A stretch of DNA of 64,000 nucleotides from Acidimicrobiia bacterium (lineage in GTDB: Bacteria; Actinomycetota; Acidimicrobiia; Spongiisociales; ZC4RG35), in contig JBIOVB010000016.1 in NCBI GenBank assembly GCA_044867525.1, positions 23,685 through 87,684 of the forward strand, read 5' to 3'. Made by a program: the position numbers and the translations under genes. Below the pieces are notes generated by a model. That model ran no database searches. It was not told the DNA's origin and saw nothing but the letters and a program-made list of their open reading frames with translations. This document shows positions 9,393-62,856 of this stretch, one piece after another. Positions within the stretch are counted from its first letter, which is position 1. The number at the start of each line of letters is the position of its first letter.

Positions 9393-9398
9393 GGGTCG

Positions 9399-12225: not shown

Positions 12226-13163
12226 TAGTCCCGCAATGCCTTCCCGGTCACGTGGAGGAAGACGGCCTCGAGATTGGGCTCGATCACCTCGACCGCAGCG
12301 ACCACAGCCCCCGCTGCGGCGACCCGGCCCAGCATCTCCGGGAGCAGGGTCGCTGCCTCATCGGCCAGGATCTCGACTCCATCCTCGGACTGGCTTGCTT
12401 CAGACACCCCGGTCACTTCGCGGGCGACCTCGACTGCCCGGGACAGGTCTCCCCCTGCAGTGATCTTGATCCGATCCTTGCCCCCGACCAGGGCAACCAG
12501 CTCCCGCCGGGTCCCCTCGGCCTTGATCACCCCCTCGTCGATGATCGCGACGCGGTCGCAGAGACGCTCTGCCTCCTCCATGTAGTGGGTGGTGTAGAGC
12601 ACCGCCATCCCCTCCGCGGAGAGGCTCTCGACCGATTCCAGGATCGAGTTGCGTGATTGGGGGTCGACACCGACGGTGGGCTCGTCGAGGATGAGCAGAC
12701 GGGGCCGGTGCAGGAGCCCGATCCCGATGTTGAGGCGGCGCTTCATCCCCCCGGAGAACTCCTTGGTCAGGTCGTCCTTTCGGTCGGTGAGCCCGATCAC
12801 CTCGAGCACTTCCGCCACCCTGCGGGACAAATCCTCACCGGAGAGCTCGTAAAGCCGGCCAAAGAAGGTGAGGTTCTCTGCTGCGGTCAGGTCGGGGTAG
12901 ATGGCGATTTCCTGGGGGACCAGGCCGATAGCCCCCTTCCCTGCCACCGAGTTTGGGGTGATCGGAGTCCCGCCGACGCTGACCTCGCCGGCGTCCGGGT
13001 GCAGGAGGCCCGCAATCATGGATATCGACGTGGTCTTCCCGGCGCCATTGGGCCCGAGCAGCCCGAACGTCTCGCCCTGGTCGATCGTGATCGCGACGCC
13101 GTCGACTGCAGTCAGATCTCCGAAACTCTTGACCAGTCCGGTCGCAGAAAGAACGGTCGCCAA
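12225..13163 (-). CDS. ABC transporter ATP-binding protein
   Basis: Walker A GPNGAGKTT, signature FSGGMKRRL, Walker B LLILDEP. Confidence 0.9.
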   Translation of the reverse strand: MATVLSATGLVKSFGDLTAVDGVAITIDQGETFGLLGPNGAGKTTSISMIAGLLHPDAGEVSVGGTPITPNSVAGKGAIGLVPQEIAIYPDLTAAENLTFFGRLYELSGEDLSRRVAEVLEVIGLTDRKDDLTKEFSGGMKRRLNIGIGLLHRPRLLILDEPTVGVDPQSRNSILESVESLSAEGMAVLYTTHYMEEAERLCDRVAIIDEGVIKAEGTRRELVALVGGKDRIKITAGGDLSRAVEVAREVTGVSEASQSEDGVEILADEAATLLPEMLGRVAAAGAVVAAVEVIEPNLEAVFLHVTGKALRD

Positions 13164-13179
13164 GCCAGCCCCATGTCGA

Positions 13180-14583
13180 TTAACGGGGCACCCTACCGGG
13201 ACCGATCGAGACGGCAGTCGCCTGAGCTGCCGTGGGCTCTGCGCAACAGAACCAGCTCTCGGTCAATCGGGGGGAACCACCGGTGAACGGGGGTAGCGGG
13301 CCCAGATCCGAATCGGAGGCCAGGCCTATCGCCTCCCGCATCGCGACCAAGGTTTCAGCGCTTTCGGCACCGCAATCGGACGCCTCGGCCGCGATCTGGT
13401 CCAGCTGCTTGTGGAGGACTGCCGTCGCCGGATCCTCGAACTCCCACAACCAGGAGAGGGACTGGGCGTCGTAGCGGATGAGGTGCGGGGCGACAGCGGG
13501 GTGGCCCTCGAGCAGGGATCCCTCTGGAAGCAGGAGCTTGATCGACAGCTGGACGGGATCGGTTACCGCCCAAAGCTGCTCTCGGTCGAGGAAGCGGACC
13601 AGGTCGGCGATGTCGCCGGGCCTTGTCCACGGCAGGAAGGGGAGCCAGGTCGGCCGGAGATGGATCCCCACGGCCCCGGCCACGGCGACTGCCTGTCGCA
13701 TGTCGGAAACCGTGTGCCCTTTGTCCAGGATGGCCAGCGTGCCATCGTCCACACTCTCGAAGGCGCTGGTGACGAATAGGACCCCGAGCGCGGCAACCTC
13801 GGTCCACAGGTGCCTGTGGGCGAGGATGTGCTCGACCTTGACCGTGACGTCGAACGTCACGCCTGGATGAGCCGCGTGCGCCTCTCTGAGGATGTCCAGC
13901 GAATACCGAGGCGCATTGAAGAAGTCGGGATCGGCGAAGGTGACGTGCTCGACACCGTCTGCGACCAGCGATGCGATGTCGGCGAGGACCGGCGCGGCAC
14001 CCACCACGCGAAGCCTTCCGTCATAGAGCACCGGAATCGGGCAATGCCGGCACCGGTGCCGGCACCCGTGTGTCGCTTCGACGGCCGCCGCCAGCCTGGC
14101 CTCACCTCCCCACTCCAGCCTCGCGTATTCCTCATGGGCTGGTAGCAGGTTGCGATCGGGCACCAGCGGGCTTGGTCGGTCCAGGCTCAGGACGGCTTCA
14201 GGCAATGGGTGCGCCCCTCCCATCAGGGCCCGGGCCCATGCGACGATGCCTCCCGAGTACTCCCCGGCGAACGCCGACGCTCCGAGGACCCGGACAGTCC
14301 AGTCGCTGCCGGTCGAGGCATACAGCCCGAAGAAGGCGATGGGGAGCCGGGGGTGCTCCTCTCTGACCCTGGCCGCCACGGTGGTCGCCAGCCGCATTGC
14401 GGTGTGCATTGGCACCGAGAAGGCGACGGCGTCCGCGGCCTCCAAGAGCTCTTCCTGCCAGGGCTCGACGGAGAGGTCGAGGGTGTCGACCGTGACCCCG
14501 GCCGCCTGCAGCGCCGCGGCCGCATTCGCGAGGTGAACCGGCTGATGGCCGAGCTCATATGTGGAGACCAGGAGCAGCCGCAC
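13180..14583 (-). CDS. B12-binding-domain radical SAM protein with a C-terminal CCAEP motif
   Basis: The N-terminus is a Rossmann-like B12-binding-type domain. The radical SAM cluster motif is CRHRCRHC (CX3CX2C). Near the C-terminus, WFCCAEPTAAQ is encoded by TGT TGC GCA GAG CCC at 13234-13248 (minus strand), which I verified in the DNA. Confidence 0.8.
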   Translation of the reverse strand: MRLLLVSTYELGHQPVHLANAAAALQAAGVTVDTLDLSVEPWQEELLEAADAVAFSVPMHTAMRLATTVAARVREEHPRLPIAFFGLYASTGSDWTVRVLGASAFAGEYSGGIVAWARALMGGAHPLPEAVLSLDRPSPLVPDRNLLPAHEEYARLEWGGEARLAAAVEATHGCRHRCRHCPIPVLYDGRLRVVGAAPVLADIASLVADGVEHVTFADPDFFNAPRYSLDILREAHAAHPGVTFDVTVKVEHILAHRHLWTEVAALGVLFVTSAFESVDDGTLAILDKGHTVSDMRQAVAVAGAVGIHLRPTWLPFLPWTRPGDIADLVRFLDREQLWAVTDPVQLSIKLLLPEGSLLEGHPAVAPHLIRYDAQSLSWLWEFEDPATAVLHKQLDQIAAEASDCGAESAETLVAMREAIGLASDSDLGPLPPFTGGSPRLTESWFCCAEPTAAQATAVSIGPGRVPR

Positions 14584-15549: not shown

Positions 15550-18267
15550 ATGTCAGGTGATCTCGGGCGCACCCTCGGCGACGACTACATCCACCAGCTT
15601 CCCGACACGGATCCGACCGAGACCCAGGAGTGGCTGGACTCCTTCGATCAGGTCGTGGCAGCTGAGGGATCTGATCGGGCCCGATTCCTGATGGCGAAGC
15701 TGCTGGAACGGGCACACGAGACGAGTATCGGTGTCCCCGGAGCGGTGACCACCCCATACGTGAACACCATCCCGGCCGAGGAGCAGCCCGAATTCCCGGG
15801 CGACCCTGACATCGAGCGCAGGATCCGCCGTTTCATCCGCTGGAACGCCGCCGTAATGGTGATCAAGGCCAACCATCGGGAGAAGGGGATCGGGGGCCAC
15901 CTTTCGACATTCGCCTCGTCGGCCACTCTCTACGAAATCGGCTTCAACCACTTTTTCCGGGGTCGGAGCGCCCCCGGGGGCGGCGACCACGTCTACATGC
16001 AGGGTCATGCCGCCCCGGGCATCTATGCCCGGGCCTTCCTCGAGGGGCGCTTCGACGAGAAGCACCTCGACAACTTCCGCTTCGAGATCGGCGGCGATGG
16101 GCTCTCCTCGTATCCCCATCCCCGGCTGATGCCTGACTTCTGGGAGTTCCCCACGGTGTCGATGGGCTTGGGTCCGATCAATTCGATCTATCACGCGCGG
16201 TTCAACAAGTACCTGCACAACCGGGGCATGGACGACACCAGCCAGTCCCGGGTGTGGTGTTTCATCGGCGACGGGGAGGTAGACGAGCCGGAGACCCTGG
16301 GGGCGATCTCCCTAGCCAACAGGGAAGGCCTCAACAACCTGATCTGGGTGATCAATTGCAACCTGCAGCGGCTCGACGGCCCGGTCCGGGGGAACAGTCA
16401 GATCATCACCGAGCTCGAGGCGGTCTTCAGGGGCGCCGGATGGAACGTGATCAAGGTGATCTGGGGCTCGGGGTGGGACCGGCTCCTCGCCCAGGACGAC
16501 GACGGCGCCCTGATCGACGTGATGAGCAGCACGGTCGACGGGGAGTATCAGCGGTACAAGGCGGAGGACGGCGCCTATGTCAGAGAGCACTTCTTCGGCA
16601 AGGATCCCCGAACCAAGGCGATGGTCGAGGACATGACCGACGAGGAGATCTGGGACCTGCGCCGGGGAGGGCTCGACTATCGCAAGGTGTACGCGGCGTA
16701 CAAGGTTGCGACCGAGCTCGACAACGGCCGGCCCACCGTGATCCTGGCCAAGACCATCAAAGGATGGACTCTCGGCCCCGATGTCGAGGGGCGCAACGCC
16801 ACTCATCAGATCAAAGAGCTCACCAATCAACAGCTGATGACGTTGCGAGAGACTCTCCACCTCCAGGACGAGATCCCAGCCGACTCCTTGGAGGGCGAGG
16901 CAGAGCCCTCGTATTTCCGGCCGGGCCCGGGCACCCCCGAGCACGAGTACCTCCAGCAGAGGCGTCAGGAACTTGGAGGGGCCCTGCCCGCTCGCGTGGT
17001 CCCGGAGCACAGCCTGCAGCTTCCCGCAACCGAGGCCTACGCAGAGATCTATGCCGGGTCGGGGAAGGTCGAAGCCTCGACCACGACTGCCTTCACCCGC
17101 CTCCTCCGCAACCTGTCCCGAGTCGAGGGGTTCGGGGAGAGGATCGTGCCCATAGTCCCGGACGAGGCGCGCACCTTCGGCATGGACTCGCTTTTCCGTG
17201 AGCTCAAGATCTACGCCTCCCAGGGTCAGCTCTATGAGCCGGTGGACGCGTCGATGTTGCTCTCCTACGCCGAGAGCCAGGACGGCCAGATCCTGGAGGA
17301 GGGGATCACGGAGGCAGGGTCGATCGCCTCCTGGATCGCCGCCGCCACGTCGTACGCCACCCGTGGGGTCCCGATGGTCCCCTTTTTCATCTTCTACTCC
17401 ATGTTCGGCTTCCAGCGGGTGGGTGATCTGATCTGGTCGGCGGCGGACTCCAGGTCACGGGGGTTCCTGCTCGGGGCGACGGCAGGACGCACCACCCTCC
17501 AGGGCGAGGGGTTACAGCACCAGGATGGGCACAGCCTGGTGCTGGCGACCACCGTCCCTGTTTGCGAGGCGTACGACCCCGCCTTCGCCTACGAAGTGGG
17601 CACGATCGTGGAGCACGGCCTGCAGAGGATGTACGGGCGAGGAGAGGATGTCTTCTACTACCTCACCCTGTACAACGAGAACTACAGCCAGCCGCCGCGA
17701 GCTGACGGCGTCGCGGAAGGGATAATCGAAGGTCTCTATCGCTGGCAGGAAGCCCCGGACATCTCCGGGCCGCGTGCCGCGATCCTCTTCTCCGGGTCGG
17801 CGAACCTCGCCGCCCGGGAGGCGGCGAGTGAGCTCGCTGAGAACTACGGGGTGGCGGCCGAGCTGTGGTCGGCGACCTCCTACAAGAAGCTGCGCGAGGA
17901 GGCACTGTCGGTGGGGCGGTGGAACCGGCTGCATCCGAGGGAGACGCCAAGGGTGCCCCTCGTCACCAAGCGGTTGGCAACGACCGAGGGCCCGGTCGTG
18001 GCTGTGTCCGACTACATGCGGCTGGTCCCGGACCAGATCTCGCAGTGGGCGCCAAGTCGATTCGTGACTCTGGGCACCGACGGCTTCGGGAGATCCGACT
18101 CTCGCAAGGCACTACGCAAGTTCTTCGAGATCGACACCGGCAGCATCGTCGCCACCACTCTGTGGGCGCTCGCCACAGAGGGCTCGGTCCCGATGGATCG
18201 AGTGCTCGACGCCTTCGACCGCTACGGAATCGATCCCGAAGCTCCCGATCCCGCTCATTCGCATTGA
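15550..18267 (+). CDS. aceE: Pyruvate dehydrogenase E1 component, homodimeric type
   Basis: 905 aa and collinear with AceE-type E1. Recognisable blocks include the N-terminal DPTETQEWLDS, the GDGE thiamine-diphosphate region and GTDGFGRSD near the C-terminus. Confidence 0.9.
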   Translation: MSGDLGRTLGDDYIHQLPDTDPTETQEWLDSFDQVVAAEGSDRARFLMAKLLERAHETSIGVPGAVTTPYVNTIPAEEQPEFPGDPDIERRIRRFIRWNAAVMVIKANHREKGIGGHLSTFASSATLYEIGFNHFFRGRSAPGGGDHVYMQGHAAPGIYARAFLEGRFDEKHLDNFRFEIGGDGLSSYPHPRLMPDFWEFPTVSMGLGPINSIYHARFNKYLHNRGMDDTSQSRVWCFIGDGEVDEPETLGAISLANREGLNNLIWVINCNLQRLDGPVRGNSQIITELEAVFRGAGWNVIKVIWGSGWDRLLAQDDDGALIDVMSSTVDGEYQRYKAEDGAYVREHFFGKDPRTKAMVEDMTDEEIWDLRRGGLDYRKVYAAYKVATELDNGRPTVILAKTIKGWTLGPDVEGRNATHQIKELTNQQLMTLRETLHLQDEIPADSLEGEAEPSYFRPGPGTPEHEYLQQRRQELGGALPARVVPEHSLQLPATEAYAEIYAGSGKVEASTTTAFTRLLRNLSRVEGFGERIVPIVPDEARTFGMDSLFRELKIYASQGQLYEPVDASMLLSYAESQDGQILEEGITEAGSIASWIAAATSYATRGVPMVPFFIFYSMFGFQRVGDLIWSAADSRSRGFLLGATAGRTTLQGEGLQHQDGHSLVLATTVPVCEAYDPAFAYEVGTIVEHGLQRMYGRGEDVFYYLTLYNENYSQPPRADGVAEGIIEGLYRWQEAPDISGPRAAILFSGSANLAAREAASELAENYGVAAELWSATSYKKLREEALSVGRWNRLHPRETPRVPLVTKRLATTEGPVVAVSDYMRLVPDQISQWAPSRFVTLGTDGFGRSDSRKALRKFFEIDTGSIVATTLWALATEGSVPMDRVLDAFDRYGIDPEAPDPAHSH

Positions 18268-18659
18268 CGCCGGACGAGGCTCTCGTCTTGCCCAGCGCGA
18301 TTGGAGACGCGATCCGGGCTCACGCCGGCAATTGCCTCCCTGACGAGTGTTGTGGGCTCCTCGCCTTCGAGGAGGGCGCACTCTGCTTCGCCTACCCGCT
18401 CACCAATGCCGACCCTTCGCCGGTGAGCTTCACGGTCGACCCCGACGAGCACTACGGGGCGCTGCAACACGCCGAACGCCAGGGTTGGGAGATCGCCGGG
18501 GTCTTCCATTCCCACCCGGCCGGGGACCCGGTCCCATCGGCGACCGATGCAGCAATGGCCTGGGACCCCGACTGGATCCACCTGATCGTTGCCGGGGACG
18601 AGATCAACGCGTTTCGGATCCGGGACGGCCGGATCCAGCAGCGGCCCATCCGGCCGTGA
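18264..18659 (+). CDS. JAMM/MPN+ metalloprotease (Mov34/Mec+ family)
   Basis: Only the C-terminal 131 codons of track ORF 17865-18659 are plausible. They carry ECCGLL (catalytic Glu) and the JAMM zinc motif HSHPAGDPVPSATD. The proposed TTG start at 18264 overlaps the aceE stop (TTGA). Confidence 0.7.
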   Translation: MTPDEALVLPSAIGDAIRAHAGNCLPDECCGLLAFEEGALCFAYPLTNADPSPVSFTVDPDEHYGALQHAERQGWEIAGVFHSHPAGDPVPSATDAAMAWDPDWIHLIVAGDEINAFRIRDGRIQQRPIRP

Positions 18660-19210: not shown

Positions 19211-20368
19211 ATGAGCGACAGCGCCCAATTGCTCCTGGAACTGGGCGCAATTGTCCTGGCCCTGGCGCTGATGGCACGGTTCGCGAGGCGGATCGGGATC
19301 ACCCCCATACCCCTCTACCTGCTCGCCGGGCTGGCGATTGGAGAGGGTGGCGTGGTTCCGGTGGTCACCTCGGAGGAGATCGTCGGGTTCGGTGCGGAGC
19401 TCGGTGTGATCTTCCTCCTCCTCCTGCTCGGTCTGGAGTATTCGGCGGGTGAGCTGGTCACCGGTCTGCGCTCGGTCGGTCGCGTCGGTCTCGCCGATCT
19501 GGCCCTCAACTTCACACCGGGGTTCCTGACCGGCATCGTCCTCGACCTAGGCCTTGTGGCATCGGTGTTCTTCGGGGCGGTGACCTACGTCTCCTCGACG
19601 GGGATCGTCGCCAAGCTCATCGAGGACCTGGGTTGGATAGGGAACCGGGAGACACCAACCGTCCTCTCCATCCTGGTCTTCGAGGATCTCGCCATGGCCC
19701 TGTTCCTCCCCATCCTCGGTGTCCTTGCCCTGGGAAGCGGGCCTGGAACCGCATTGGTGACCGTGGCGGTCGCGGTGGCTCTGGTGGTGGGGATCATCGC
19801 CGTGGCGGCGCGGGGGCAGGACCGTATCGGGTCAGTGTTGTTTCATGAGTCCGACGAGGTGAGCCTCCTCTCCCTGTTCGGCATCACCCTGCTCATCAGC
19901 GGGCTCGCCGAAGGGGTCAATGTGTCCGCTGCCGTCGGTGCTTTCCTGGTCGGGATCGGCGTATCCGGTGAGTCGGTGGATCGAGCTCGCGCCCTGCTCA
20001 CACCGCTCCGTGACCTCTTCGCTGCGATCTTCTTCGTCTTCTTCGGTCTACAGACCGATCCGGGCGACATCCCGGGCGTAGCGGTGGCCGCGGTCTCGGT
20101 CGCCATCGTGTCCGGGCTCACCAAGTTCGCCATCGGGTGGTGGGCAGCGCGGAGGGCCGGCATCGGGGTCAAGGGCCGGCGCAGGGCCGGGGCGCTTCTC
20201 ATCGCCAGAGGCGAGTTCTCGATCGTGATCGCCGGTCTGGCGGCCTCACTCGCGGGAGCCGGTGAGCTCACCGCACTGGCAGCCACCTATGTCCTGATCA
20301 TGGCGATCGCCGGCCCCATCGTCGCCAAGGTCGTCGACTCTGGCCGACGTCACGTCGTCGTCGCCTGA
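19211..20368 (+). CDS. Cation:proton antiporter (CPA2/Kef-type)
   Basis: 385-aa polytopic membrane protein. The N-terminus LLELGAIVLALALMARFARRIGITPIPLYLLAGLAIG is typical of Kef/KhtU-type antiporters. Confidence 0.8.
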   Translation: MSDSAQLLLELGAIVLALALMARFARRIGITPIPLYLLAGLAIGEGGVVPVVTSEEIVGFGAELGVIFLLLLLGLEYSAGELVTGLRSVGRVGLADLALNFTPGFLTGIVLDLGLVASVFFGAVTYVSSTGIVAKLIEDLGWIGNRETPTVLSILVFEDLAMALFLPILGVLALGSGPGTALVTVAVAVALVVGIIAVAARGQDRIGSVLFHESDEVSLLSLFGITLLISGLAEGVNVSAAVGAFLVGIGVSGESVDRARALLTPLRDLFAAIFFVFFGLQTDPGDIPGVAVAAVSVAIVSGLTKFAIGWWAARRAGIGVKGRRRAGALLIARGEFSIVIAGLAASLAGAGELTALAATYVLIMAIAGPIVAKVVDSGRRHVVVA

Positions 20369-20371
20369 TTC

Positions 20372-21403
20372 TCAGACTGCCGCCAGCCAGCCCATCGCAC
20401 CCCGCTCGGCGAGCCAGTGCTGATGCGGGTGGAACATGTAACGACCCAGGTGGGGAAGCGTGAATTCGACCATCGCACGCTGCGCCTGACCGAGCGTGAT
20501 GGTGTCATCCCTGAACACCGGATGCGCTCCCATTCCTGCGGGGTAGACGTCGAATGTCTCGGCGTGGAGGTGGAAGGAGGCAACCGGCTCGTGCTCGAGC
20601 ATGTTCACCAGATAGGCCCGGACCGGCTCCCCCACGGGCACCTTGATCGGGAAGGCGTCGTAGAAGCCGGCCACCCCGTTCCAGGCGACGATCCCGTTGC
20701 TCCCGATCTCCTCGTTGCCGAATCCGGAGAGCAACAGCGCCACCTCCAACGCCGGTCGCCGACCCTGGGGTGGATCGACGATGAGCATCCCGTACAACCC
20801 GCGGCCGATGTGCTCGCCGAACGGCGTGGTGTGGCAGTGGTAGGGATGCAGCCCTGCCGGTCCGGCCACCATCTCATAGGTGGCTTCGCCACCAGGAGCC
20901 ACCGGCTCCCAGCCGTCCTGTTCAGGGCGGTGAGCGCCGTGGAAATGGATGTTGTGGGCGTGACCAGTCCGGTTCTCGAAATGGACTCGCAGGGTGTCCC
21001 CCTCCGTTGCCCGAAGGATGGGGCCGGGAACAGTGCCGTTATAGGTCCAGGCCTCGAAGAACGTGCCCGCCCCGATCTCGAGGAGACGTTCCTCGGCAGA
21101 GATCTCGACCTCGCGCACCGTTCCTATCGGGAGCCCATCCGGCGGTGGCGGAAAGGTGTGGGCGTGGAGGGCCTCGGGTGCCAGGCCCGGTGGCGGGGTG
21201 TGGAGGTGGCCGTAGAGCGCGGGAGCTCCTCCTTCATGCATGCTGGAGCGCCCGATGGCCGCCGGGTTGTAGGCCTGATCTTCCCCCTCGGCCGCTGCGG
21301 CTCGATGCTGCACCGCGTGGCCCATGACCGAGCCGCCAAGGAGGAGAGCGCCCCCGAGCCCGGCCTTTTTCAGGAGCTCACGACGGGATACGAACTCAGG
21401 CAC
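20372..21403 (-). CDS. Tat-exported two-domain multicopper oxidase family protein
   Basis: Twin-arginine signal (SRRELLKKAGLGG). Four HXH-type copper motifs: HNIHFH, YHCH, HLH and HPHQH. A type-1 Cu-like C..H..M pattern (HCHTTPFGEHIGRGLYGM) sits in the first cupredoxin domain. The GTG start is 1 nt after the upstream stop. Confidence 0.75.
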   Translation of the reverse strand: MPEFVSRRELLKKAGLGGALLLGGSVMGHAVQHRAAAAEGEDQAYNPAAIGRSSMHEGGAPALYGHLHTPPPGLAPEALHAHTFPPPPDGLPIGTVREVEISAEERLLEIGAGTFFEAWTYNGTVPGPILRATEGDTLRVHFENRTGHAHNIHFHGAHRPEQDGWEPVAPGGEATYEMVAGPAGLHPYHCHTTPFGEHIGRGLYGMLIVDPPQGRRPALEVALLLSGFGNEEIGSNGIVAWNGVAGFYDAFPIKVPVGEPVRAYLVNMLEHEPVASFHLHAETFDVYPAGMGAHPVFRDDTITLGQAQRAMVEFTLPHLGRYMFHPHQHWLAERGAMGWLAAV

Positions 21404-21404
21404 G

Positions 21405-23054
21405 TCAGACGATGCCGCCTACGACCAAGCCCAGCCCGAGAAACAGGGCGTACACCGCCAAACCACCACCGATGAGAACCCAGCGCTGCCAGGCGGGGAT
21501 CGAGGTACGGGCGAACAGGTAGTAGGCGATGACTCCTAGGAACGGGATGACCAGGATGACGGCCATCCAGGCAATCACCCTGCCCCGGCCCAGGTCCTCG
21601 CGCTTGGTCAAGTCCCAGATCGCGATCACCACCCAGGAGGTGTAGAGGACCAGCGGCAGCACATAGGCATAGAGGCCGAAGAAGACCCCGGCTGCCGAGG
21701 CGAAGCTGACTCCCATCACATTGATTCCTTTCGTCTGGGTGACTTCCAAGCCGTCCGGCATCTCGGGCACTGCGATGGCCTCGATATCTGGTCGGGCATT
21801 CTCGAACACGTCGACTGCGGGGACCACCGGGGCGTCGGCGCCGCCGGGCATCGTTGGTTGCGGTCCTGGTTTGGGTACGGAGCCGATCGGGATCTCGGGC
21901 TGGAGCCCGACTCCGGACTCGAAGTAGCGCCCGAGTTGCGCGCTGGTGGACCCGAGCTCGAACAAGGCGGGCAACCTGAGCCCTTCACAGGGCTGCTTGA
22001 ACTCGAGCCCGGCGGGCAGCGAGGTCGTGTACTCGTTGTCCTCGAAGCAGTTACCCGAGCCCGACGGCCCCCCGAGTGTGATATCCGCAAGCCCGGAGCC
22101 CTCGACCACGTTGGACCTGACCTCATTTCCCTCAGACATCCAGAAGTTCTTGTCGAGGATGGGGAAGACCACGATTCCGCTCTGAGGATGATTGAAGACT
22201 CGGTTGTTGGTGACCAGCGCGTCGTTTCCGCCCGCGAGGAGAATCCCGTTCCCCTGTCCGGCCCATTCGAACGCCAACGCCGGGGCTTCGACATTTCCGT
22301 TGTCATGGACCAGGTTTCCGGCGATGGTCACGCCCTGGAAAGGCGGCAACAACTCGCCATCGAGCGTGTTGGGGACGATGCCGGCCACGTTGTGACGCCA
22401 CGTGGAGTCGACCAGGAAGAGGTCGTCGGAGGCATTCGTGCCCGAATAGCCGAGGCCGTTCCACTCGGCGATCGAGTCGGTGATCACTGCCTGACACGGC
22501 TTGCACTGACCGATGTAGAAGCCGGCATCGGGAGACCCCGACGCATAGGAGTGCTCGAAGAGGCCGTCGCTGGAGTCGAACGCGTAAATCCCGTACACCC
22601 CGTTGTCGACCGCGGTGACATACGAGCCCCGGTAGCCCCGCACCCCCGTGAAGAACAGGCCGTTGCCGGTCGCGTTGCGAACGGTCAGGTTCTCCACGGC
22701 GACGCCGTCGGCGAAGAACACCTTGACCCCGTTCTCCCGTTGCGACTCGCCGTCGATGATCACCTCGTTGCGGTCGACGCCGCGGATCACGAGGCCGGGC
22801 GTAGTCACCTCCACCTCTTCCCGGTAGATGCCGGCGTCGATCAGGACCAGGTCCCCGGCGTTTGCCGCGTCAACCGCGGCCTGGATCGTCGGGTAGTCCT
22901 GGGGCACGAGCCGGGTGTCGCCGCTTGCCTCCGCCGGGGCGTCGGTGGCCGGGTCGCCCACGCCCGACGGAGAGGGCTCCCCGACGGGAGGGCCGGCGCA
23001 TGCATTGAGCCCGAGTATCAGCCCACAAGCGACCAACCAACCCCGCGCCCTCAC
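21405..23054 (-). CDS. Lipoprotein with a NosD-like right-handed parallel beta-helix fused to a C-terminal PLDc_N-type membrane domain
   Basis: Start reset to GTG 23054 (GTGA overlap with the cupredoxin stop), which gives a lipobox signal (WLVACGLILGLNAC). Beta-helix repeats follow (TIQAAVDAANAGDLVLIDAGIYRE..., repeated N/G-rich rungs). The last roughly 100 aa are TM helices with WDLTKRE...WMAVILVIPFLGVIAYYLF, the hallmark of the PLDc_N domain. Confidence 0.7.
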   Translation of the reverse strand: MRARGWLVACGLILGLNACAGPPVGEPSPSGVGDPATDAPAEASGDTRLVPQDYPTIQAAVDAANAGDLVLIDAGIYREEVEVTTPGLVIRGVDRNEVIIDGESQRENGVKVFFADGVAVENLTVRNATGNGLFFTGVRGYRGSYVTAVDNGVYGIYAFDSSDGLFEHSYASGSPDAGFYIGQCKPCQAVITDSIAEWNGLGYSGTNASDDLFLVDSTWRHNVAGIVPNTLDGELLPPFQGVTIAGNLVHDNGNVEAPALAFEWAGQGNGILLAGGNDALVTNNRVFNHPQSGIVVFPILDKNFWMSEGNEVRSNVVEGSGLADITLGGPSGSGNCFEDNEYTTSLPAGLEFKQPCEGLRLPALFELGSTSAQLGRYFESGVGLQPEIPIGSVPKPGPQPTMPGGADAPVVPAVDVFENARPDIEAIAVPEMPDGLEVTQTKGINVMGVSFASAAGVFFGLYAYVLPLVLYTSWVVIAIWDLTKREDLGRGRVIAWMAVILVIPFLGVIAYYLFARTSIPAWQRWVLIGGGLAVYALFLGLGLVVGGIV

Positions 23055-23434
23055 CCGGAGGCTTCCCCCACGATGACCGTGCCCGCCATCCCATCGCCGT
23101 CGGCGTTCCCATGGAAGGTGCAGAAGAACGGGTACTCCCCGGGCGCCTCGAAGGCGATCTTGGCCTCGTCGCCCTCGAATTGCTCCAGGCTCCCGAAGAC
23201 GGGCTCGGTCGACCATGACTCATCGGCGGCCACCGCGTTGTGGGGATTGCGCCCGCCTCCGACGAAATTCACCGATCCCCCAACCGGGACGCGGATCTCG
23301 GTGTACTCGTAGCGATTGTCGAACATCCTCACCGTCACGTTGTCACCTTCGATCACCGCTGATTCCCCCCCACCGCTGCATGCCGCGACCGAGACAGCCA
23401 CGAGCAGGAGCAGACCCGCGAGCCGACCGATCAA
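23051..23434 (-). CDS. Cupredoxin (plastocyanin/amicyanin-like) lipoprotein
   Basis: Start set to TTG 23434 (TTGA overlap with the coxG stop), which gives a lipoprotein signal (LLLLVAVSVAAC). The type-1 Cu ligand pattern is PHNAV ... FFCTFHGNADGDGM. Confidence 0.75.
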   Translation of the reverse strand: MIGRLAGLLLLVAVSVAACSGGGESAVIEGDNVTVRMFDNRYEYTEIRVPVGGSVNFVGGGRNPHNAVAADESWSTEPVFGSLEQFEGDEAKIAFEAPGEYPFFCTFHGNADGDGMAGTVIVGEASG

Positions 23435-23988
23435 TGTGTGTCCTTGCTGAAGAGCCGCTTGAACCAGGCCCACAGCGAGGAGAAGAACAGCGAGATCCCA
23501 CGAACCTCGGCCGCCTTCACGGATTCGGCCTCGGCCTCGGTCGGGGCGGCGAGCTTGGCCTCGAGGCAGGAGACGAACTCGCCGATCAGCCGCTTCGACA
23601 TCTCATTGATGAGTCCGGTCCGCCCGAACTGGGCCGCCGGCCCGGACAGGGTGACATCGGCGTCGACCACCACCTTCGACCCGCTGCCTTCGGGTTTGAT
23701 GGTGTAGACCACCTTGACCTGGCCCCGGGACCCGCCCTTCCTGTCGACTCCTTTGCCGTCGATGGTGGCGCTCATCCCCGCCTGGTCGGGTATGACCACG
23801 CATTGGCCCTCGAAGGAAGCAGCCATCGGCCCCAGCTTCACCGAGAGGTTGCCCTCGTATGAGCCATCCTCATTCTGCCCGCTGAGGTTGGCCCCGGGCA
23901 GGCACTTGGCCACGGAGGGGACGTCCTGGAACAAGTCCCAGACGACGGTGGTCGGGCGCGCCACCACGAATTCCTGAGTGATGTTCAT
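23431..23988 (-). CDS. coxG: SRPBCC/CoxG-family protein
   Basis: The N-terminus MNITQEFVVARPTTVVWDLFQDVPSVAKCLPGA is the typical CoxG signature. The C-terminal tail is amphipathic and hydrophobic (ISLFFSSLWAWFKRLF). Confidence 0.75.
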   Translation of the reverse strand: MNITQEFVVARPTTVVWDLFQDVPSVAKCLPGANLSGQNEDGSYEGNLSVKLGPMAASFEGQCVVIPDQAGMSATIDGKGVDRKGGSRGQVKVVYTIKPEGSGSKVVVDADVTLSGPAAQFGRTGLINEMSKRLIGEFVSCLEAKLAAPTEAEAESVKAAEVRGISLFFSSLWAWFKRLFSKDTH

Positions 23989-23993
23989 GATCC

Positions 23994-24041
23994 TCCCGGG
24001 ATGTCTCCAGAGCCGGTGGGGAACGGTAGTGGATCCCGGGA
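23994..24041 (-). promoter_or_regulatory. Inverted repeat in the coxG leader (possible operator or RNA hairpin)
   Basis: TCCCGGGAT (23994-24002) and ATCCCGGGA (24033-24041) are perfect 9-nt reverse complements separated by 30 nt. They lie in the 62-nt gap between mog and coxG. Each arm contains a CCCGGG palindrome. Confidence 0.3.
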
Positions 24042-24050
24042 TTCTTCCGG

Positions 24051-24536
24051 TTACCGGTGCTCGGTATCCCCCGCGAGCAGGTCGAGGGCATGCGGGATCA
24101 CCTCGAGCACCGCCTCCAGGCTCTCCACCGCCCCCCGCGCCGAACCCGGCAGGTTGATCACCAGTGTCGATCCGATGGACCCGGCGACCCCCCGGGACAG
24201 CGCCGCCATCGGCGTCGACTCGAGACCACGGGCCATGATCAGATGTGTCAGGCCCGGGGCCTCTCGCTCGATGAGACCCACGGTGGCCTCCGGGGTCACA
24301 TCCCGCGGCCCGAGCCCGGTACCCCCCGTGGTCACGATGAGACGAGCCCGGGCCAGCGCGGCCCGGATCGCCGTGGAGATCGCCGGGATCTCGTCGGGGA
24401 CCACTGCCCTCTCGATTTCGAAGCCGGCCCCGATCAGCACGGCCTCGACAGCATCGCCGGAAAGATCCTGGCGGGTGCCTGAGCTCACCCCGTCGCTCAC
24501 TGTCAGGACCAACGCAGGCCGGCCGGTTAGCCCCAC
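24051..24536 (-). CDS. mog: Molybdenum cofactor biosynthesis protein, MogA/MoaB family
   Basis: 161 aa with TVSDG and TTGGTGLGPRD motifs and INLPGS. It overlaps the upstream membrane-protein gene by 10 nt. Confidence 0.85.
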   Translation of the reverse strand: MGLTGRPALVLTVSDGVSSGTRQDLSGDAVEAVLIGAGFEIERAVVPDEIPAISTAIRAALARARLIVTTGGTGLGPRDVTPEATVGLIEREAPGLTHLIMARGLESTPMAALSRGVAGSIGSTLVINLPGSARGAVESLEAVLEVIPHALDLLAGDTEHR

Positions 24537-25369
24537 TGGACGGGGTTCACCGAGACTCCGCCCCTGAGGACGAAGATCTCGAAGAGGAGGATCACCAGGA
24601 GGCTGGCCCCGAGACCCCAGGGTGCCGGGGTCTCACGGAAATCCTCGGGGCCCTGGACCGTGGTTGTGCCCGGAGCTGCTGCCACCGTTCCGAGGAAGAT
24701 GACCGCGGAGAGTGGCAATGCGGGGATCACCCCGCTCCCGGCGTCCGGGGCGAAGAACGGGATGGCGAGGAAGACCGAGATCGCCGCCGGCACGAGGGTG
24801 ATCCAAAGGGCGAAGGTGAAGCGCTTCCTGCTGTTGTTGATCAATTTGTGGTGTGGAGTGAATGCGAGAAAAGCCGACGCCGCAGAGAGCACAATGAGCA
24901 ACAGGCCGACCGCCCCCCCGGCGGCAATCACGTATTCCAGCCCGGCAGGGGCGTCGAGGGTGGCATAAGCCCGCGCCAGCTGTCCCTCGGGATCGAAGGG
25001 CAGGAACACTGCCTGCCCGAACGCCTGTGCCAGCACGTGGAGCAGCATCCAGAGCAGGGTGAGCTTGGCTGTTCCCTGGTCCCGGGCGGTCGGATAGGCG
25101 AAAAGGAGCATGAAACCGACGATCAGGCAGAGCAGGAATCCCCCAGCCCAGGCCAGACCCGACGCACCGGTCAATTCGACGCGGTTGTTGTAGATGACCG
25201 CGTTCCCACCCAGGATCAGGGCAAGGACGCCGTCGCCCAGGTCGTCGAGGAATTGGGCGATGACGATTCCGAGTGTCGAGCCGAGGACCGAAGCGACCAC
25301 CAACGTCGGACCGATCCGCTTGATCGCGTCCGTCGCCGATGACTGCTGGGTCGTAACCTCACTAGTCAC
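24527..25369 (-). CDS. Hypothetical polytopic membrane protein
   Basis: 280 aa with about seven hydrophobic segments. I recognise no family. Confidence 0.55.
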   Translation of the reverse strand: MTSEVTTQQSSATDAIKRIGPTLVVASVLGSTLGIVIAQFLDDLGDGVLALILGGNAVIYNNRVELTGASGLAWAGGFLLCLIVGFMLLFAYPTARDQGTAKLTLLWMLLHVLAQAFGQAVFLPFDPEGQLARAYATLDAPAGLEYVIAAGGAVGLLLIVLSAASAFLAFTPHHKLINNSRKRFTFALWITLVPAAISVFLAIPFFAPDAGSGVIPALPLSAVIFLGTVAAAPGTTTVQGPEDFRETPAPWGLGASLLVILLFEIFVLRGGVSVNPVQWG

Positions 25370-25441
25370 GGAGGGTGATGCTAAACGCCAGGTCGCCGCT
25401 GACTAGTGCTTCCGTGTCAGAACGGAAATCTTCCCCGTCAC

Positions 25442-25699
25442 TCAAGGCTTCCCTGCGACCAGGGTACCGATCGCCCAGAGCAGGAAGATGCCGATGGAGC
25501 CGAGCAGCACCGGGCCGGTGCGCCTCCAATTGAGGCCAGACCAGATTCCGACACCGATGACGATCATGACCATGGTCGCCGTCCACCAGGGTGGGGCGAG
25601 TCCGGCAACGGCGGCGCCGATCACCAGGATCATGACTACCAGCAGGAAGCCGGCGGCGACCAGGGCGTATAGAACCTGACGGGGCGAGGGCTCGGTCAC
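25442..25699 (-). CDS. Hypothetical small membrane protein
   Basis: Start reset to GTG 25699 (GTGA overlap with the mug stop). This gives 85 aa with three hydrophobic helices. Confidence 0.45.
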   Translation of the reverse strand: MTEPSPRQVLYALVAAGFLLVVMILVIGAAVAGLAPPWWTATMVMIVIGVGIWSGLNWRRTGPVLLGSIGIFLLWAIGTLVAGKP

Positions 25700-26265
25700 A
25701 ACACCAACACCCCCGAAGCCACACCGACCAGGCGAAACCACCCGGCAAGGGTTTCCGTCGTCTCATGGGCATTGAGGCCGGAAGGATTGGGCAGCACCCA
25801 CACGTCGGCACCGCCGATCCCGACTGCCTGAAGGCCGAGGACCGCATCCGGGCTCTGGAAGGCGCTGCGATAGGCCGTTACGCCGAGAACTGCCACCACC
25901 TGGGGCCGATGTTCCGCCACGGTCGAGTCCAGGCGGGCGGCACCCGCCCTCAACTCGCCGGGGCTCAGTTCGGAGGCCCTGGCAGTCGCCCTGGCCACGA
26001 GGTTGGTGATCCCGATGCCATGCTCGATCAGTCGCCTGCGATCGGCATCGGTCATCCCGGTCGCGAAGTCGAATTCGAGGTCGATGAGCCCCGACGCCCG
26101 GAGCGCCGGGTAGAACCGATTCGAGGGATGGCAGAAATGAGTCTGGGTTGCCGCAGTCCACAATCCGGGGTTGATTCCGACTATCAGCAAGCGAAGCCCC
26201 GGGCCCACCAGGTCGGGCACCGTTTCGCCGCGGAACGCCTCGAGTTGCTCCCTGGTCAATCCCAC
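25696..26265 (-). CDS. mug: G/U mismatch-specific DNA glycosylase
   Basis: LLIVGINPGLWTAA..HFCHPSNRFYPAL matches the Mug/TDG GINPG motif region. PNPSGLN lies near the C-terminus. Confidence 0.85.
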   Translation of the reverse strand: MGLTREQLEAFRGETVPDLVGPGLRLLIVGINPGLWTAATQTHFCHPSNRFYPALRASGLIDLEFDFATGMTDADRRRLIEHGIGITNLVARATARASELSPGELRAGAARLDSTVAEHRPQVVAVLGVTAYRSAFQSPDAVLGLQAVGIGGADVWVLPNPSGLNAHETTETLAGWFRLVGVASGVLVL

Positions 26266-26274
26266 CTTCCAAGA

Positions 26275-27195
26275 TCACCGCGCCGGGAGCCAAGGTGGGA
26301 GGGGGGCATCGATCCGGGCCAAAGTGGATGGCACGTCGCCGAACCAGTTCTCATCGTGTGCCTGCCACGCCCGCCAGGCCTCGGTGATCTCCTCCTTGGT
26401 CCGGGCGACGAAGTTCCACCACATCTCGATTGGCTCTCCCAGCGGCTCGCCGCCGAGGAGAAGGAATCGGGAGCCATGCCGGGAGATGACAGGCAGAGAG
26501 GGCCACCCTTGGGGAATGAGCGCCAGCCAGCCGGGCTCGACGATGTCCTCTCCGACGCGGACCGGGTGGTCGAGTGGCACGACGGCATATTCGAACTCGG
26601 GCTCTGTCGGTAGCTCGACACTCCCGGCCCCCATCGAGACATCGGCGCCGACCATTCGCCAGTCGACGGTGGCTTGGGATTCGACGTCGCCGAGAGCGCC
26701 CACCATCACGATCGCGTCGGCCCCGGAGAGCTCGGCGACCGGCAGCTCCGCCAGGTGTTGAAATCGGGAGGCCCCGTGCCGAGTTCCCTCCGGTTGTGCG
26801 AGCCACATCTGGGCTCCCTGGATCCTGGTTCTGGTGCCCAGCTCGGCATGGGCAATCCCCCTGCCCGCGGTCATCAGGTTGAGCTGACCGGGGCGGATCG
26901 GCTGCTCCGACCCCAGTGAATCGGTGTGCACCGCCTCACCCTCGAGCAACCAGGTGACAGTGGCCAGGCCGGTGTGGGGATGGGGCCCGATCTCGAGCGG
27001 GTGCGGGTCGTCGAAGTCAGGCGGCTGGATCAAGTCGACGAAGCACCACGGCCCGACGGTCCTCCTCCCCTTGGTGGGGAGCACCCGCTGAATTCCGACC
27101 CCGCCCACGGTGGTGGCCCGTCCCTCGATGACGACGATCCCGGCCAGTGGGCCCTGCGTACCTCCGACATCGGGAAGCTGGACCGGTCCACTCAT
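26275..27195 (-). CDS. Pirin family protein
   Basis: A cupin metal motif (GPHPHTGLATVTWLLEG) and a bicupin length of 306 aa. Confidence 0.85.
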   Translation of the reverse strand: MSGPVQLPDVGGTQGPLAGIVVIEGRATTVGGVGIQRVLPTKGRRTVGPWCFVDLIQPPDFDDPHPLEIGPHPHTGLATVTWLLEGEAVHTDSLGSEQPIRPGQLNLMTAGRGIAHAELGTRTRIQGAQMWLAQPEGTRHGASRFQHLAELPVAELSGADAIVMVGALGDVESQATVDWRMVGADVSMGAGSVELPTEPEFEYAVVPLDHPVRVGEDIVEPGWLALIPQGWPSLPVISRHGSRFLLLGGEPLGEPIEMWWNFVARTKEEITEAWRAWQAHDENWFGDVPSTLARIDAPLPPWLPAR

Positions 27196-53182: not shown

Positions 53183-53238
53183 CAGTCTCCTCAGGCTGTC
53201 AGCCCTCCCCCGCTGTCGTCACCTCCAGCGGCGCCTCG

Positions 53239-53320: not shown

Positions 53321-53382
53321 GTCGAAGGCAGAGGTAATGATACGACGAACTTCGCTCCTCGCTGGAGATGTCTCATAGGGGG

Positions 53383-62802: not shown

Positions 62803-62808
62803 GTGCCG

Positions 62809-62849: not shown

Positions 62850-62856
62850 GACCGCG

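Follow-up and report, generated by a model that had tools for sequence, protein, structure and literature searches.

A conserved cell-surface copper module of cupredoxin, membrane-anchored β-helix protein and small multicopper oxidase in Acidimicrobiia and other lineages

Results and Discussion

A three-gene copper module on the minus strand

A cupredoxin, a membrane-anchored β-helix protein and a small two-domain multicopper oxidase (MCO) make up a widely conserved, unstudied cell-surface copper module, found here in a 64,000-nucleotide stretch of an Acidimicrobiia contig (the window). We see about an even chance that this is a two-protein extracytoplasmic copper redox module, encoded by three genes here, whose tethered cupredoxin is the dedicated redox partner of the oxidase. 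The first-pass annotation did not recognise a described pathway and, likewise, full-text literature searches found no paper describing a cupredoxin/β-helix/MCO module. The features of the region are as follows.

20372..21403, minus strand: Tat-exported two-domain MCO of type C, 343 aa (Pfam, TAT model, invariant copper ligands)
21405..23054, minus strand: β-helix protein with lipoprotein signal and C-terminal membrane anchor, 549 aa, partner of the MCO (Pfam, AF2, synteny)
22035..22916, minus strand: right-handed parallel β-helix domain of that protein, residues ~47-340 (AF2 secondary structure, fold search)
21411..21695, minus strand: three predicted transmembrane helices of that protein including the PLDc_N motif, residues ~454-548 (AF2 model, Pfam)
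23051..23434, minus strand: type-1 (blue) cupredoxin with lipoprotein signal, 127 aa, TTG start (Pfam Copper-bind, Cupredoxin_1)
23431..23988, minus strand: CoxG-like SRPBCC protein, 185 aa, lineage-specific upstream neighbour (Pfam COXG)
24051..24536, minus strand: MoaB/MogA-type molybdenum-cofactor biosynthesis protein (NCBIfam molyb_syn domain, synteny)
24527..25369, minus strand: polytopic membrane protein, 280 aa (no family match; synteny upstream of MoaB)

The minus-strand sequence bears out the earlier description of four genes, from CoxG to the MCO, chained by two overlaps and a 1-nt gap. The CoxG stop TGA (23433-23431) and the cupredoxin TTG at 23434 share bases as TTGA, the β-helix GTG at 23054 shares bases with the cupredoxin stop as GTGA, and the β-helix stop TGA (21407-21405) is separated by a single base, C (21404), from the MCO GTG at 21403. 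In an independent public annotation of an identical contig (L093), CoxG, cupredoxin and β-helix protein have the same lengths and identical 4-nt overlaps; there the MCO starts 26 codons later (317 aa vs 343 aa). The 343-aa start is better supported, since it includes the twin-arginine motif SRRELLK and homologues of 340-343 aa align over 100%. The signals were also as first described, namely the lipoboxes VAAC (cupredoxin) and LNAC (β-helix protein), read from sequence, the MCO Tat signal (TIGR01409, 18.5 bits vs a cutoff of 16.7) and the hydrophobic tail of CoxG. Operons often show start/stop overlaps, and these alone are weak evidence; it is the comparative locus data that indicate a gene linkage beyond chance.

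Conservation of the module

Loci were compared across 80 species-level genomes, each encoding a relative of the β-helix protein. Of 75 testable loci, 72 have a homologous cupredoxin immediately upstream of the β-helix; in 40 the two are fused in-frame, which is the usual arrangement. The MCO follows directly downstream in 57/70 loci; the 13/70 without an adjacent MCO speak against the cupredoxin being an oxidase partner. Module loci span Acidimicrobiia, Nitriliruptoria, Chloroflexota and Leptospira fluminis. Thus, of the four-gene arrangement whose co-occurrence the first-pass annotation proposed to check, the cupredoxin, β-helix protein and MCO recur, while CoxG does not (2/39 distant loci).

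The MCOs linked to a β-helix protein form one clade, with 56-90% identity to the window MCO. A sister clade (42-47% identity) is instead linked to ZIP permeases, the ZIP gene lying directly downstream in all five of the loci examined and a DtxR/MntR-type regulator being adjacent in 4/5.

The cupredoxin matches Pfam Copper-bind (5e-8) and also Cupredoxin_1, and its T1 ligands H65, C105, H108 and M116 are kept in 47/49 homologues (96%). Among the best 150 representatives of β-helix clusters (50% identity), 30 carry an N-terminal cupredoxin. In fusions the cupredoxin joins the β-helix and never the MCO, so its redox partner could be the β-helix domain or something bound there. An AF2 model of one natural cupredoxin-β-helix fusion has a low-confidence cupredoxin part.

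The oxidase

Pfam finds Cu-oxidase_3 and Cu-oxidase_2 domains in the MCO (about 1e-21). In a PDB sequence search the two-domain MCOs 3gdc (6.5e-64) and 7rab score best and NirK comes next; the Nitrosomonas europaea blue copper oxidase 3g5w is matched at E 2.9e-20. Across 86 homologues residues H150, H153, H155, H189, C190, H191, H198, H278, H280, H325 and H327 are invariant and M206 is present in 71%. The T1 site is complete, and four HxH/HCH motifs supply eight trinuclear-cluster His; as the protein contains a single Cys, the sole T1 site sits in domain 1. Judged by these sequence signatures, it is an O2-reducing type-C two-domain MCO and not a NirK, and a homotrimer is expected. A CopA model scores 60 bits against a cutoff of 479. 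We found no conservation of the His-rich N-terminal tail among homologues, which counts against a metal ion as substrate.

Some automatic annotations of homologues, including certain JGI entries labelled 'nitrite reductase (NO-forming)', would make the oxidase a copper nitrite reductase with the cupredoxin as donor, and NirK structures do rank next behind the two-domain MCOs in the PDB search. We regard this as highly improbable, given that the NirK equivalog model scores 87.6 bits against a cutoff of 296 and that eight invariant His in four HxH/HCH motifs are the signature of an O2-reducing trinuclear cluster. Moreover, the MCO motif HNIHFH, read unaligned beside the NirK motif HNxDFH, presumably places His153 at the position of the NirK catalytic Asp.

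CoxG belongs with a molybdenum-cofactor block

CoxG (Pfam COXG, 1.6e-16) has no signal peptide and its C-terminus, GISLFFSSLWAWFKRLF, is hydrophobic/amphipathic. It lies upstream of the cupredoxin in 28/29 close Acidimicrobiia loci (β-helix identity of at least 60%) and in 2/39 distant ones (<60%), and its company is MoaB (molyb_syn, 105 bits vs a cutoff of 85), sometimes XdhC/CoxI, and the membrane protein; we therefore place it outside the conserved unit. In some relatives XdhC lies between MoaB and CoxG, and the order membrane protein-MoCF_biosynth-XdhC-CoxG is found in L001, L002 and close Acidimicrobiia loci. The gene for the 280-aa membrane protein, which had no Pfam or NCBIfam match, shares its last 10 nt with the start of MoaB. 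It is kept upstream of MoaB in close relatives, a 326-nt gap precedes the window copy, and it is likely the first gene of the co-directional array. MoaB, lying upstream, is probably on the same transcript and goes with CoxG. All three are probably co-transcribed with the module in this Acidimicrobiia lineage, yet constitute a molybdenum-cofactor block and not part of the copper module.

It is quite unlikely, in our estimation, that CoxG, MoaB and the membrane protein are true functional components in Acidimicrobiia, making a four- or six-gene unit in which CoxG could be, for example, a cytoplasmic protein, anchored to the membrane by its tail, that binds a ligand or quinone and either feeds the copper module or regulates it. 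The near-constant presence of CoxG in close loci favours such a unit, as do the retention of its 4-nt overlap with the cupredoxin in close relatives and the transcription signals of the region, where we found no promoter-like site and one terminator-like hairpin (inside the CoxG gene), fewer than in shuffled sequence. However, 37/39 distant loci keep the cupredoxin-β-helix-MCO module with no CoxG upstream, CoxG is without a signal peptide whilst the cupredoxin, β-helix protein and MCO are exported, its companions are molybdenum-cofactor genes, and long co-directional overlapping arrays are normal in high-GC actinobacterial genomes.

The β-helix protein: anchor, maturation factor or glycan-binding module

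The β-helix protein matches Pfam Beta_helix (3.7e-14) and NosD (2.9e-6; 27.3 bits vs a cutoff of 23.6), with PLDc_N at its C-terminus. The AF2 model of the 549-aa protein (pLDDT 84, pTM 0.82) ends in helices 454-483, 490-514 and 521-548, the PLDc_N match covering 475-516. A homologous 3-TM tail occurs in 73/80 genome-scan loci, as well as in L001 and L002, and an additional copy of it in L049, L056, L064 and L077. Four Cys of the β-helix (C184-x-x-C187 and C336/C356) are conserved in bacterial members and absent from haloarchaeal homologues (47-55% identity), which suggests that they form structural disulfides.

The first-pass annotation had proposed a NosD-type maturation or scaffold factor. 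As a NosD-like protein, the β-helix/TM protein would load the apo-oxidase after its Tat export, and perhaps the cupredoxin as well, with Cu(I) on the extracytoplasmic side of the membrane. Tat-exported copper enzymes such as CueO and NosZ acquire their metal outside the cytoplasm, which suits this role, as do the marginal Pfam NosD match, the β-helix set on a membrane module (in the AF2 model loosely like NosD on NosY), the CxxC invariant among bacterial members and a Sco-like gene directly downstream in L. fluminis. Nevertheless, the protein reaches 39 bits on the NosD family model, whose cutoff is 300; NosD is not among the matches in a profile search of PDB sequences, and in the fold search it is placed 39th, after alginate epimerases, lyases and tailspikes. 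The homologue alignment holds no conserved Met able to match the His-Met-Met copper motif of NosD, no ABC-transporter (nosF/Y) or NosL-like neighbour recurs across the compared loci, the loss of the Cys in haloarchaea makes structural disulfides the likelier reading, and the rationale for fusing an electron carrier to a chaperone is not obvious. We consider a maturation role unlikely. The "NosD-like" label reflects no more than a generic fold resemblance, and what the domain resembles is the generic carbohydrate-type β-helix.

That resemblance raises the prospect of a carbohydrate-binding or -active module on cell-wall or extracellular polysaccharide, where oxidative chemistry on the polysaccharide would have its electrons provided or withdrawn by the MCO and the fused cupredoxin. 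The top fold matches are mannuronan C5-epimerases, alginate/pectate lyases, glucanases and tailspikes, a profile search shows similarity to the pectinesterase N-cap, the motif YASGxPDxGxYxG is kept even in distant stand-alone homologues, and the fusion partner of the cupredoxin is the β-helix instead of the MCO. Such fold matches (TM-scores 0.3-0.55, rmsd 7-10 Å) are, however, generic for any β-helix; no catalytic motif of those enzyme families is recognisable in the domain and no carbohydrate-metabolism genes recur in module neighbourhoods. A glycan-directed function is in our view decidedly unlikely.

A Pfam scan of the window's 20 large ORFs found no nosZ, coxL or other molybdoenzyme genes, in agreement with the earlier statement that no nos or cox structural genes lie nearby. 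The self-contained extracytoplasmic copper oxidase system then proposed, including a cupredoxin of its own, stands, whereas the NosD-type maturation factor and CoxG membership do not.

A working model

We favour a redox module in which the tethered cupredoxin is most likely the dedicated partner of the oxidase. Its first component would be membrane-tethered, comprising signal and lipobox, type-1 cupredoxin, right-handed β-helix, Pro-rich linker and 3-TM PLDc_N anchor; in the lineage of the window this is split into two genes (cupredoxin; β-helix/anchor) coupled by the GTGA overlap. The second is the Tat-exported type-C two-domain MCO with its T1 site and full trinuclear cluster. As a one-electron partner, the cupredoxin would bind close to the T1 copper of domain 1, in the manner of pseudoazurin or azurin on the homologous NirK, and the oxidase would reduce O2 to water. 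The β-helix/TM part may keep the carrier, and probably the otherwise soluble oxidase too, at the membrane surface, and may also bind the electron source. The ultimate substrate would most likely be a metal ion in its reduced state, whether Cu(I), Fe(II) or Mn(II), which we favour by analogy, because the sister MCO clade is always paired with a ZIP permease (5/5 loci) and mostly with a DtxR/MntR regulator as well (4/5).

A plain anchor or dock has no obvious need for a highly conserved 300-residue β-helix or for extra PLDc_N copies, an observation that sits against simple tethering.

Comparison with known systems

NosD, within NosDFY-NosL, is likewise a right-handed β-helix held outside the cytoplasm on a membrane module and encoded beside a Tat-exported copper enzyme; unlike it, the window protein has no His-Met-Met motif, ABC partner, NosL or NosZ. 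Fet3p-Ftr1p of yeast, PcoA/PcoC/PcoD and CopA/CopC/CopD similarly have an MCO that acts at the cell surface together with a membrane protein and a small protein of cupredoxin fold. However, the small protein of the window carries a complete redox T1 site where CopC-type proteins have a Cu-binding site, and the membrane part consists of only three PLDc_N-type helices, which are not known to function in transport.

Closer in sequence are the MCO-ZIP permease pairs of actinobacteria, Deinococcus, Bacillales and rhizobial plasmids, whose Tat-exported MCOs form the sister clade and whose MCO gene overlaps or abuts that of the membrane protein, as in the window. In those pairs the MCO goes with a ZIP transporter and a DtxR/MntR regulator, whereas here its partner is the cupredoxin-β-helix-PLDc_N protein, with neither a ZIP gene nor a metal regulator beside the module. 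For the archaeal MCO1-ZIP pairs of ammonia oxidisers a role in copper uptake has been proposed but is untested (PMC7785015).

The type-C two-domain MCOs (3gdc, from Arthrobacter sp., and 3g5w) share with the window MCO the two-cupredoxin-domain architecture, a T1 site in domain 1 only and the complete set of cluster His; the clade described here is separate from these, its MCO genes being coupled to that of a cupredoxin/β-helix membrane protein. Lastly, NirK, which is served by pseudoazurin or azurin or by fused cupredoxin or cytochrome domains, has a T2 nitrite site in place of the O2-reducing trinuclear cluster, and its carriers are free or enzyme-fused, whilst the carrier here sits with, and in relatives is fused to, the β-helix membrane protein. 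Its trimeric two-domain scaffold, with the T1 site in domain 1, is nonetheless homologous, and its use of a dedicated small blue copper protein as one-electron partner provides our working model for the module.

Gene organisation of the cassette

The first-pass annotation described four minus-strand genes at 20372-23988 as a chained copper oxidase cassette. The genes are:

23431-23988, minus: CoxG-like SRPBCC protein
23051-23434, minus: type-1 cupredoxin
21405-23054, minus: right-handed β-helix protein, 549-aa, with a C-terminal PLDc_N membrane domain
20372-21403, minus: two-domain multicopper oxidase (MCO), 343-aa

Read on the minus strand, the sequence fully bears out the claimed junctions: start/stop overlaps of TTGA and GTGA, and one gap of 1 nt. 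The lipoboxes, Tat signal and hydrophobic CoxG tail can be seen straight from the translations. High third-position GC and clear family matches indicate that all four are real genes. The limits of the CoxG, cupredoxin and β-helix genes are the same in the public gene calls on L093, a contig identical to that of the window. The public MCO call (L093 5811-6764) is 26 codons short, which removes the twin-arginine signal. We prefer the earlier, longer start, giving the 343-aa form, because the twin-arginine motif is present and the length fits that of homologues.

The cassette forms part of an array of six co-directional genes (25369 to 20372) that overlap or are separated by short gaps, the widest being the 62 nt from MoaB to CoxG; a 326-nt gap lies 5′ of the first gene. 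A promoter scan of 20000-26500 found no promoter-like site, and a terminator scan of the same interval found one hairpin, within the CoxG gene, fewer than in shuffled sequence. The MoaB-CoxG spacer folds no better than its shuffles (z -1.06), and an Rfam scan gave no riboswitch or other match near the cassette. It is likely that the six genes are co-transcribed. Co-transcription in a genome of this kind is not, however, evidence for shared function. Beyond the array, 3 nt separate the MCO stop codon (20372-20374) from that of a convergent CPA2 cation/proton antiporter gene (20366-20368), leaving no intergenic room for a terminator.

Elsewhere in the window, a glycine riboswitch aptamer (53235-53324, minus, 67.8 bits) precedes the gene for the glycine cleavage P-protein (50351-53218). 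A Prok-JAB/MPN+ metalloprotease gene (18270-18659, plus; motif HSHPAGDPVPSATD) directly follows a pyruvate dehydrogenase E1 gene (15550-18267, plus). In the related locus L001 the syntenic JAB gene adjoins a ThiF-rhodanese gene of a sulfur-carrier system, which the window lacks. Long opposite-strand ORFs overlap at 61129-63177 (minus) and 62293-63999 (plus), both with coding-like GC3; the 682-aa minus-strand ORF had no Pfam match at 1e-5.

Conservation of the module across genomes

Relatives of the β-helix protein are numerous, amounting to 7272 cluster representatives (50% identity) at E<=1e-3 and 361 at 1e-30. Its near relatives are almost exclusively from Acidimicrobiia. A scan of species-representative genomes with a 12-sequence β-helix alignment returned at least 557 candidate stretches encoding a relative, and the window proteins were mapped onto the best 80 of these. 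The best 80 are drawn from Acidimicrobiia, Nitriliruptoria, Caldilineaceae, Chloroflexia, Limnocylindria, a Gemmatimonadaceae MAG and the cultured Leptospira fluminis; most are Acidimicrobiia and Nitriliruptoria of soils, sediments and soda lakes, with Chloroflexota and the cultured Leptospira also represented.

A homologous cupredoxin is encoded directly upstream of the β-helix gene in 72 of the 75 loci with enough flank, and in 40 of the 75 it is fused in-frame to the β-helix. Moreover, 30 of the 150 best β-helix cluster representatives carry an N-terminal cupredoxin of this type. In 57/70 loci the next gene downstream, on the same strand, encodes an MCO. The co-occurrence expected of a functional cassette is thus found for cupredoxin and MCO around the β-helix gene. 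It does not extend to CoxG, so that only three members of the proposed four-gene unit stand: CoxG is upstream in 28/29 loci whose β-helix protein is at least 60% identical to that of the window, but in 2/39 below 60%. Given the cupredoxin and MCO linkage, the fusions and the lineage-bound CoxG, the conserved unit is therefore a cupredoxin::β-helix::membrane anchor protein plus an MCO. In the window lineage the first of these proteins is split into two genes with a 4-nt overlap. Carrier and oxidase are tightly co-inherited, with separate co-evolving clades.

Several MAGs titled 'uncultured Acidobacteriota' (L006, L013, L017, L020, L021 and L038) contain loci 75-89% identical to the window cassette and share its Acidimicrobiia-type synteny; the titles look taxonomically mislabelled. 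In the L. fluminis locus (L077), the gene for a 104-aa stand-alone PLDc_N protein (7610-7924) separates the MCO gene from that of the cupredoxin-β-helix fusion, and a Sco-like CxxxC protein (9004-9624) is encoded directly downstream of the module. The Sco-like gene follows the module in Leptospira only.

A full-text literature search found no description of this gene arrangement, in line with the earlier remark that it is not recognised as a described pathway. Every part of the module comes from a known superfamily; the new element is the pairing of an MCO with a cupredoxin/β-helix partner of its own that is tethered to the membrane.

CoxG as part of an adjacent molybdenum-cofactor block

The CoxG protein carries a clear COXG/SRPBCC domain (PF06240, 60.7 bits vs a cutoff of 22.2). 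The first-pass annotation had found neither nosZ nor coxL in the window, and this held for the 20 large ORFs scanned against Pfam, among which there was no CoxL/aldehyde-oxidase family member or other molybdoenzyme across the 64 kb (coxM and coxS are below the size scanned). No cox structural genes were seen in the gene calls within ±8 kb of the related Acidimicrobiia loci L001 and L002.

In the close lineage the upstream order is an unclassified membrane protein, MoaB/MogA, sometimes XdhC/CoxI, and then CoxG. We conclude that CoxG is a member of the neighbouring molybdenum-cofactor block and not of the copper module. An XdhC/CoxI gene sits between MoaB and CoxG in several related Acidimicrobiia loci (L001 5855-6916, L002 6365-7417). 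The same interval in the window is a 62-nt spacer (23989-24050), and the loci closest to the window also lack XdhC; XdhC was therefore lost in, or never gained by, the window sub-lineage. At the head of the array lies a gene for a 280-aa polytopic membrane protein (24527-25369, minus) that matched neither Pfam nor NCBIfam. The end of this gene shares 10 nt with the start of MoaB, and close relatives keep the gene upstream of MoaB.

The oxidase and the cupredoxin

The MCO matches Cu-oxidase_3 and Cu-oxidase_2 in Pfam (1.8e-21 and 1e-20), giving the two cupredoxin domains expected within the roughly 300-350 residues of a type C two-domain MCO. Its nearest solved relatives are the two-domain MCOs 3gdc (6.5e-64, full-length) and 7rab (5e-56), followed by copper nitrite reductases. 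Across 86 family members the T1 ligands H150, C190 and H198 are invariant and the axial M206 occurs in 71%. The eight histidines of the trinuclear cluster, in four HxH/HCH motifs (H153/H155, H189/H191, H278/H280 and H325/H327), are likewise invariant. C190 is the sole Cys of the protein, and the single T1 site is therefore in domain 1, which is the NirK-like "type C" arrangement of two-domain MCOs. A twin-arginine signal was found at residues 5-33 (TIGR01409, 18.5 bits vs 16.7; motif SRRELLK). The protein is thus a predicted exported four-copper oxidase. Structures of type C two-domain MCOs have been solved, but to our knowledge these enzymes lack an established physiological role.

Other assignments were considered. 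The CopA/PcoA copper-resistance oxidase model scored 60.3 bits against a cutoff of 479 (TIGR01480). A His-rich N-terminal tail, considered as a metal-capture region, is not conserved, and some members have no His there. Some homologues are annotated as "nitrite reductase", and copper nitrite reductases are indeed among the structural relatives. However, the NirK model (TIGR02376) scored 87.6 bits vs a cutoff of 296.3, covering domain 1 alone, and the catalytic Asp of the NirK motif HNxDFH corresponds to His153 in the window MCO, as read without an alignment. With a His at this position and a sub-cutoff score, the "nitrite reductase" labels are therefore wrong and a NirK function is essentially excluded. 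From its sequence, the window MCO is predicted to be an O2-reducing oxidase.

The cupredoxin matches Pfam Copper-bind at 33.7 bits vs a cutoff of 21.2 and shows the type-1 pattern His...Cys-x2-His-xn-Met on a cupredoxin fold. The T1 set, His65, Cys105, His108 and Met116, is present in 47 of 49 homologues. Scores do not reach the equivalog cutoffs of plastocyanin, amicyanin or halocyanin, placing the protein in none of those named subfamilies. Judged by its ligands, it is a redox-active blue copper protein, a T1 electron carrier that is predicted to be membrane-tethered. When a naturally fused cupredoxin-β-helix protein (P0103) was modelled with AF2, its cupredoxin part reached a pLDDT of about 45-60, because only five sequences covered that part.

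The β-helix protein is not NosD

The AF2 model of the β-helix protein (pLDDT 84, pTM 0.82) comprises a lipoprotein signal, a β-helix at about residues 47-340, a capping helix, a proline-rich linker and three transmembrane helices (454-548) that include the PLDc_N motif. The membrane tail was matched in 73 of the 80 scanned loci, and an extra PLDc_N copy in four, Leptospira among them. The β-helix is right-handed and parallel, and every match in the fold search is to a β-helix protein. NosD (7osf_A) ranked 39, with E 5e-4 and an rmsd of 5.3 Å over 323 columns; the matches ahead of it include alginate epimerases and lyases, glucanases and tailspikes of phages. The right-handed β-helix fold is common to many unrelated families.

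The first-pass annotation read this protein as a NosD-like maturation or scaffold factor. Although the Pfam NosD domain gave a marginal match (27.3 vs a cutoff of 23.6), the family model TIGR04247 scored 39 bits against a cutoff of 300, aligning to positions 1-119 of 377 alone, and a family-profile search of PDB sequences did not recover NosD even at E<=1. Canonical NosD has a His-Met-Met Cu(I)-binding motif (PMC13452462). Among 49 members of the β-helix family the helix region contains no conserved Met (M306 occurs in 31%), while His168 and H250 are found in 86% and 76%; this comparison is of family conservation and not a residue-level alignment to canonical NosD. The expected partners do not accompany the gene either: NosZ was not matched in the 20 large window ORFs (NosL is too small for that scan), and neither an ABC transporter, NosL nor NosZ recurs as a neighbour in the 80 loci, where the recurrent neighbours scanned are unrelated housekeeping genes. 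Family model, profile search, fold rank, motif and partners all argue against the earlier reading, and we conclude that the protein is not NosD.

An ABC-2 type transporter (9881-13262, minus), made up of two ABC2_membrane_3 permeases and an ATPase, is encoded about 7 kb from the cassette. It could be taken for nosFY because NosY/NosF is of the ABC-2 type. Unrelated genes lie in between, and the transporter was not seen when gene neighbours were mapped in the distant loci that retain the module.

The β-helix protein has two Cys pairs, C184/C187, which forms an invariant CxxC, and C336/C356. The CxxC was considered as a Cu(I) or redox site, but haloarchaeal homologues of 47-55% identity, which have twin-arginine-type N-termini and neither cupredoxin nor anchor, lack all four Cys; these residues are therefore more likely structural disulfides. 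The contexts of stand-alone homologues (Haladaptatus, Natrinema, Streptomyces and Hymenobacter) gave no functional clue, nor did other β-helix fusions, which comprise duplicated helices and PD40 propellers. In proteobacteria the related TIGR03805 β-helix family presumably has a dihaem cytochrome c as its partner, which would parallel the cupredoxin fusion.

A proposed role and its alternatives

We propose that the cupredoxin serves as a dedicated one-electron partner of the MCO. By analogy with pseudoazurin and the homologous NirK, its docking site would be the T1 copper of domain 1, and O2 would finally accept the electrons. The β-helix/anchor protein would hold carrier and oxidase at the membrane surface. 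Such retention would matter in monoderm Actinomycetota and Chloroflexota, whose cells would lose a soluble exported enzyme without it. The best guess for the electron source is a reduced metal ion, by analogy with a sister clade of MCOs paired with ZIP-family metal transporter genes. We give this overall picture, a tethered cupredoxin feeding an MCO with the β-helix/anchor keeping both at the membrane, an even chance of being correct.

The cupredoxin fusion partner is always the β-helix and never the MCO, the β-helix is highly conserved and the PLDc_N unit can be duplicated, which would allow the β-helix/PLDc_N protein a more active part. It is doubtful, but conceivable, that this protein is more than an anchor and represents a new component for redox chemistry or metal handling outside the cytoplasm. 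On one view, the β-helix could bind or oxidise a substrate, the fused cupredoxin carry the electrons and the dedicated MCO act as terminal oxidase, making up a three-part 'β-helix oxidase'. In another, the PLDc_N helices could form a metal conduit working with the MCO, as Ftr1 does with Fet3. Either version, if true, would be the first function for the very common PLDc_N membrane module and for a β-helix family of hundreds of bacterial species. Copper delivery by the β-helix protein in the manner of NosD would fit its place beside a copper enzyme and its marginal Pfam score, but is unlikely in view of the failed family model and absent partners. A genuine contribution of CoxG in Acidimicrobiia would fit its near-constant presence in close relatives; its absence from most of the more distant loci and its molybdenum-cofactor neighbours make this quite unlikely. 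A glycan-directed function is suggested by the epimerases, lyases and glucanases among the fold matches and is very unlikely, the fold being so widely shared.

Returning to the tethered carrier-oxidase pair, one MCO clade thereby gains a fixed, genetically encoded partner, a blue-copper carrier joined to a membrane-anchored β-helix. This turns an "orphan oxidase" into a testable electron-transfer pair, in a module that is widespread and has a cultured carrier. Moreover, three annotation errors are corrected: "NosD" for any β-helix beside a copper enzyme, "nitrite reductase" for MCOs of this kind, and CoxG read as a link to CO dehydrogenase.

Comparison with known systems

CopC is a copper binder; the window cupredoxin instead has the full redox T1 ligand set. 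The MCOs linked to a β-helix gene group in a single clade, with 56-90% identity to the window MCO, and the ZIP-linked sister clade shares 42-47% identity with the latter protein. Members of this sister clade come from plasmids of Rhodococcus, Arthrobacter, Deinococcus, Peribacillus and Sinorhizobium, often within metal-resistance islands. A ZIP-family metal transporter gene follows the MCO in all five sister loci examined (L005, L086, L087, L088 and L089), overlapping or abutting it in four and lying 15 nt off in Peribacillus, and a DtxR/MntR-type regulator is beside the MCO in 4/5. We found no study of the plasmid-type MCO-ZIP module in the literature, the archaeal MCO1-ZIP case aside. A comparable linkage of MCO and ZIP genes is on record for ammonia-oxidising archaea, where a role in copper uptake was suggested without test (PMC7785015). 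Taken together, the comparison suggests a general rule whereby this oxidase family always acts with an adjacent membrane protein, and by analogy their joint role is probably metal handling at the cell surface.
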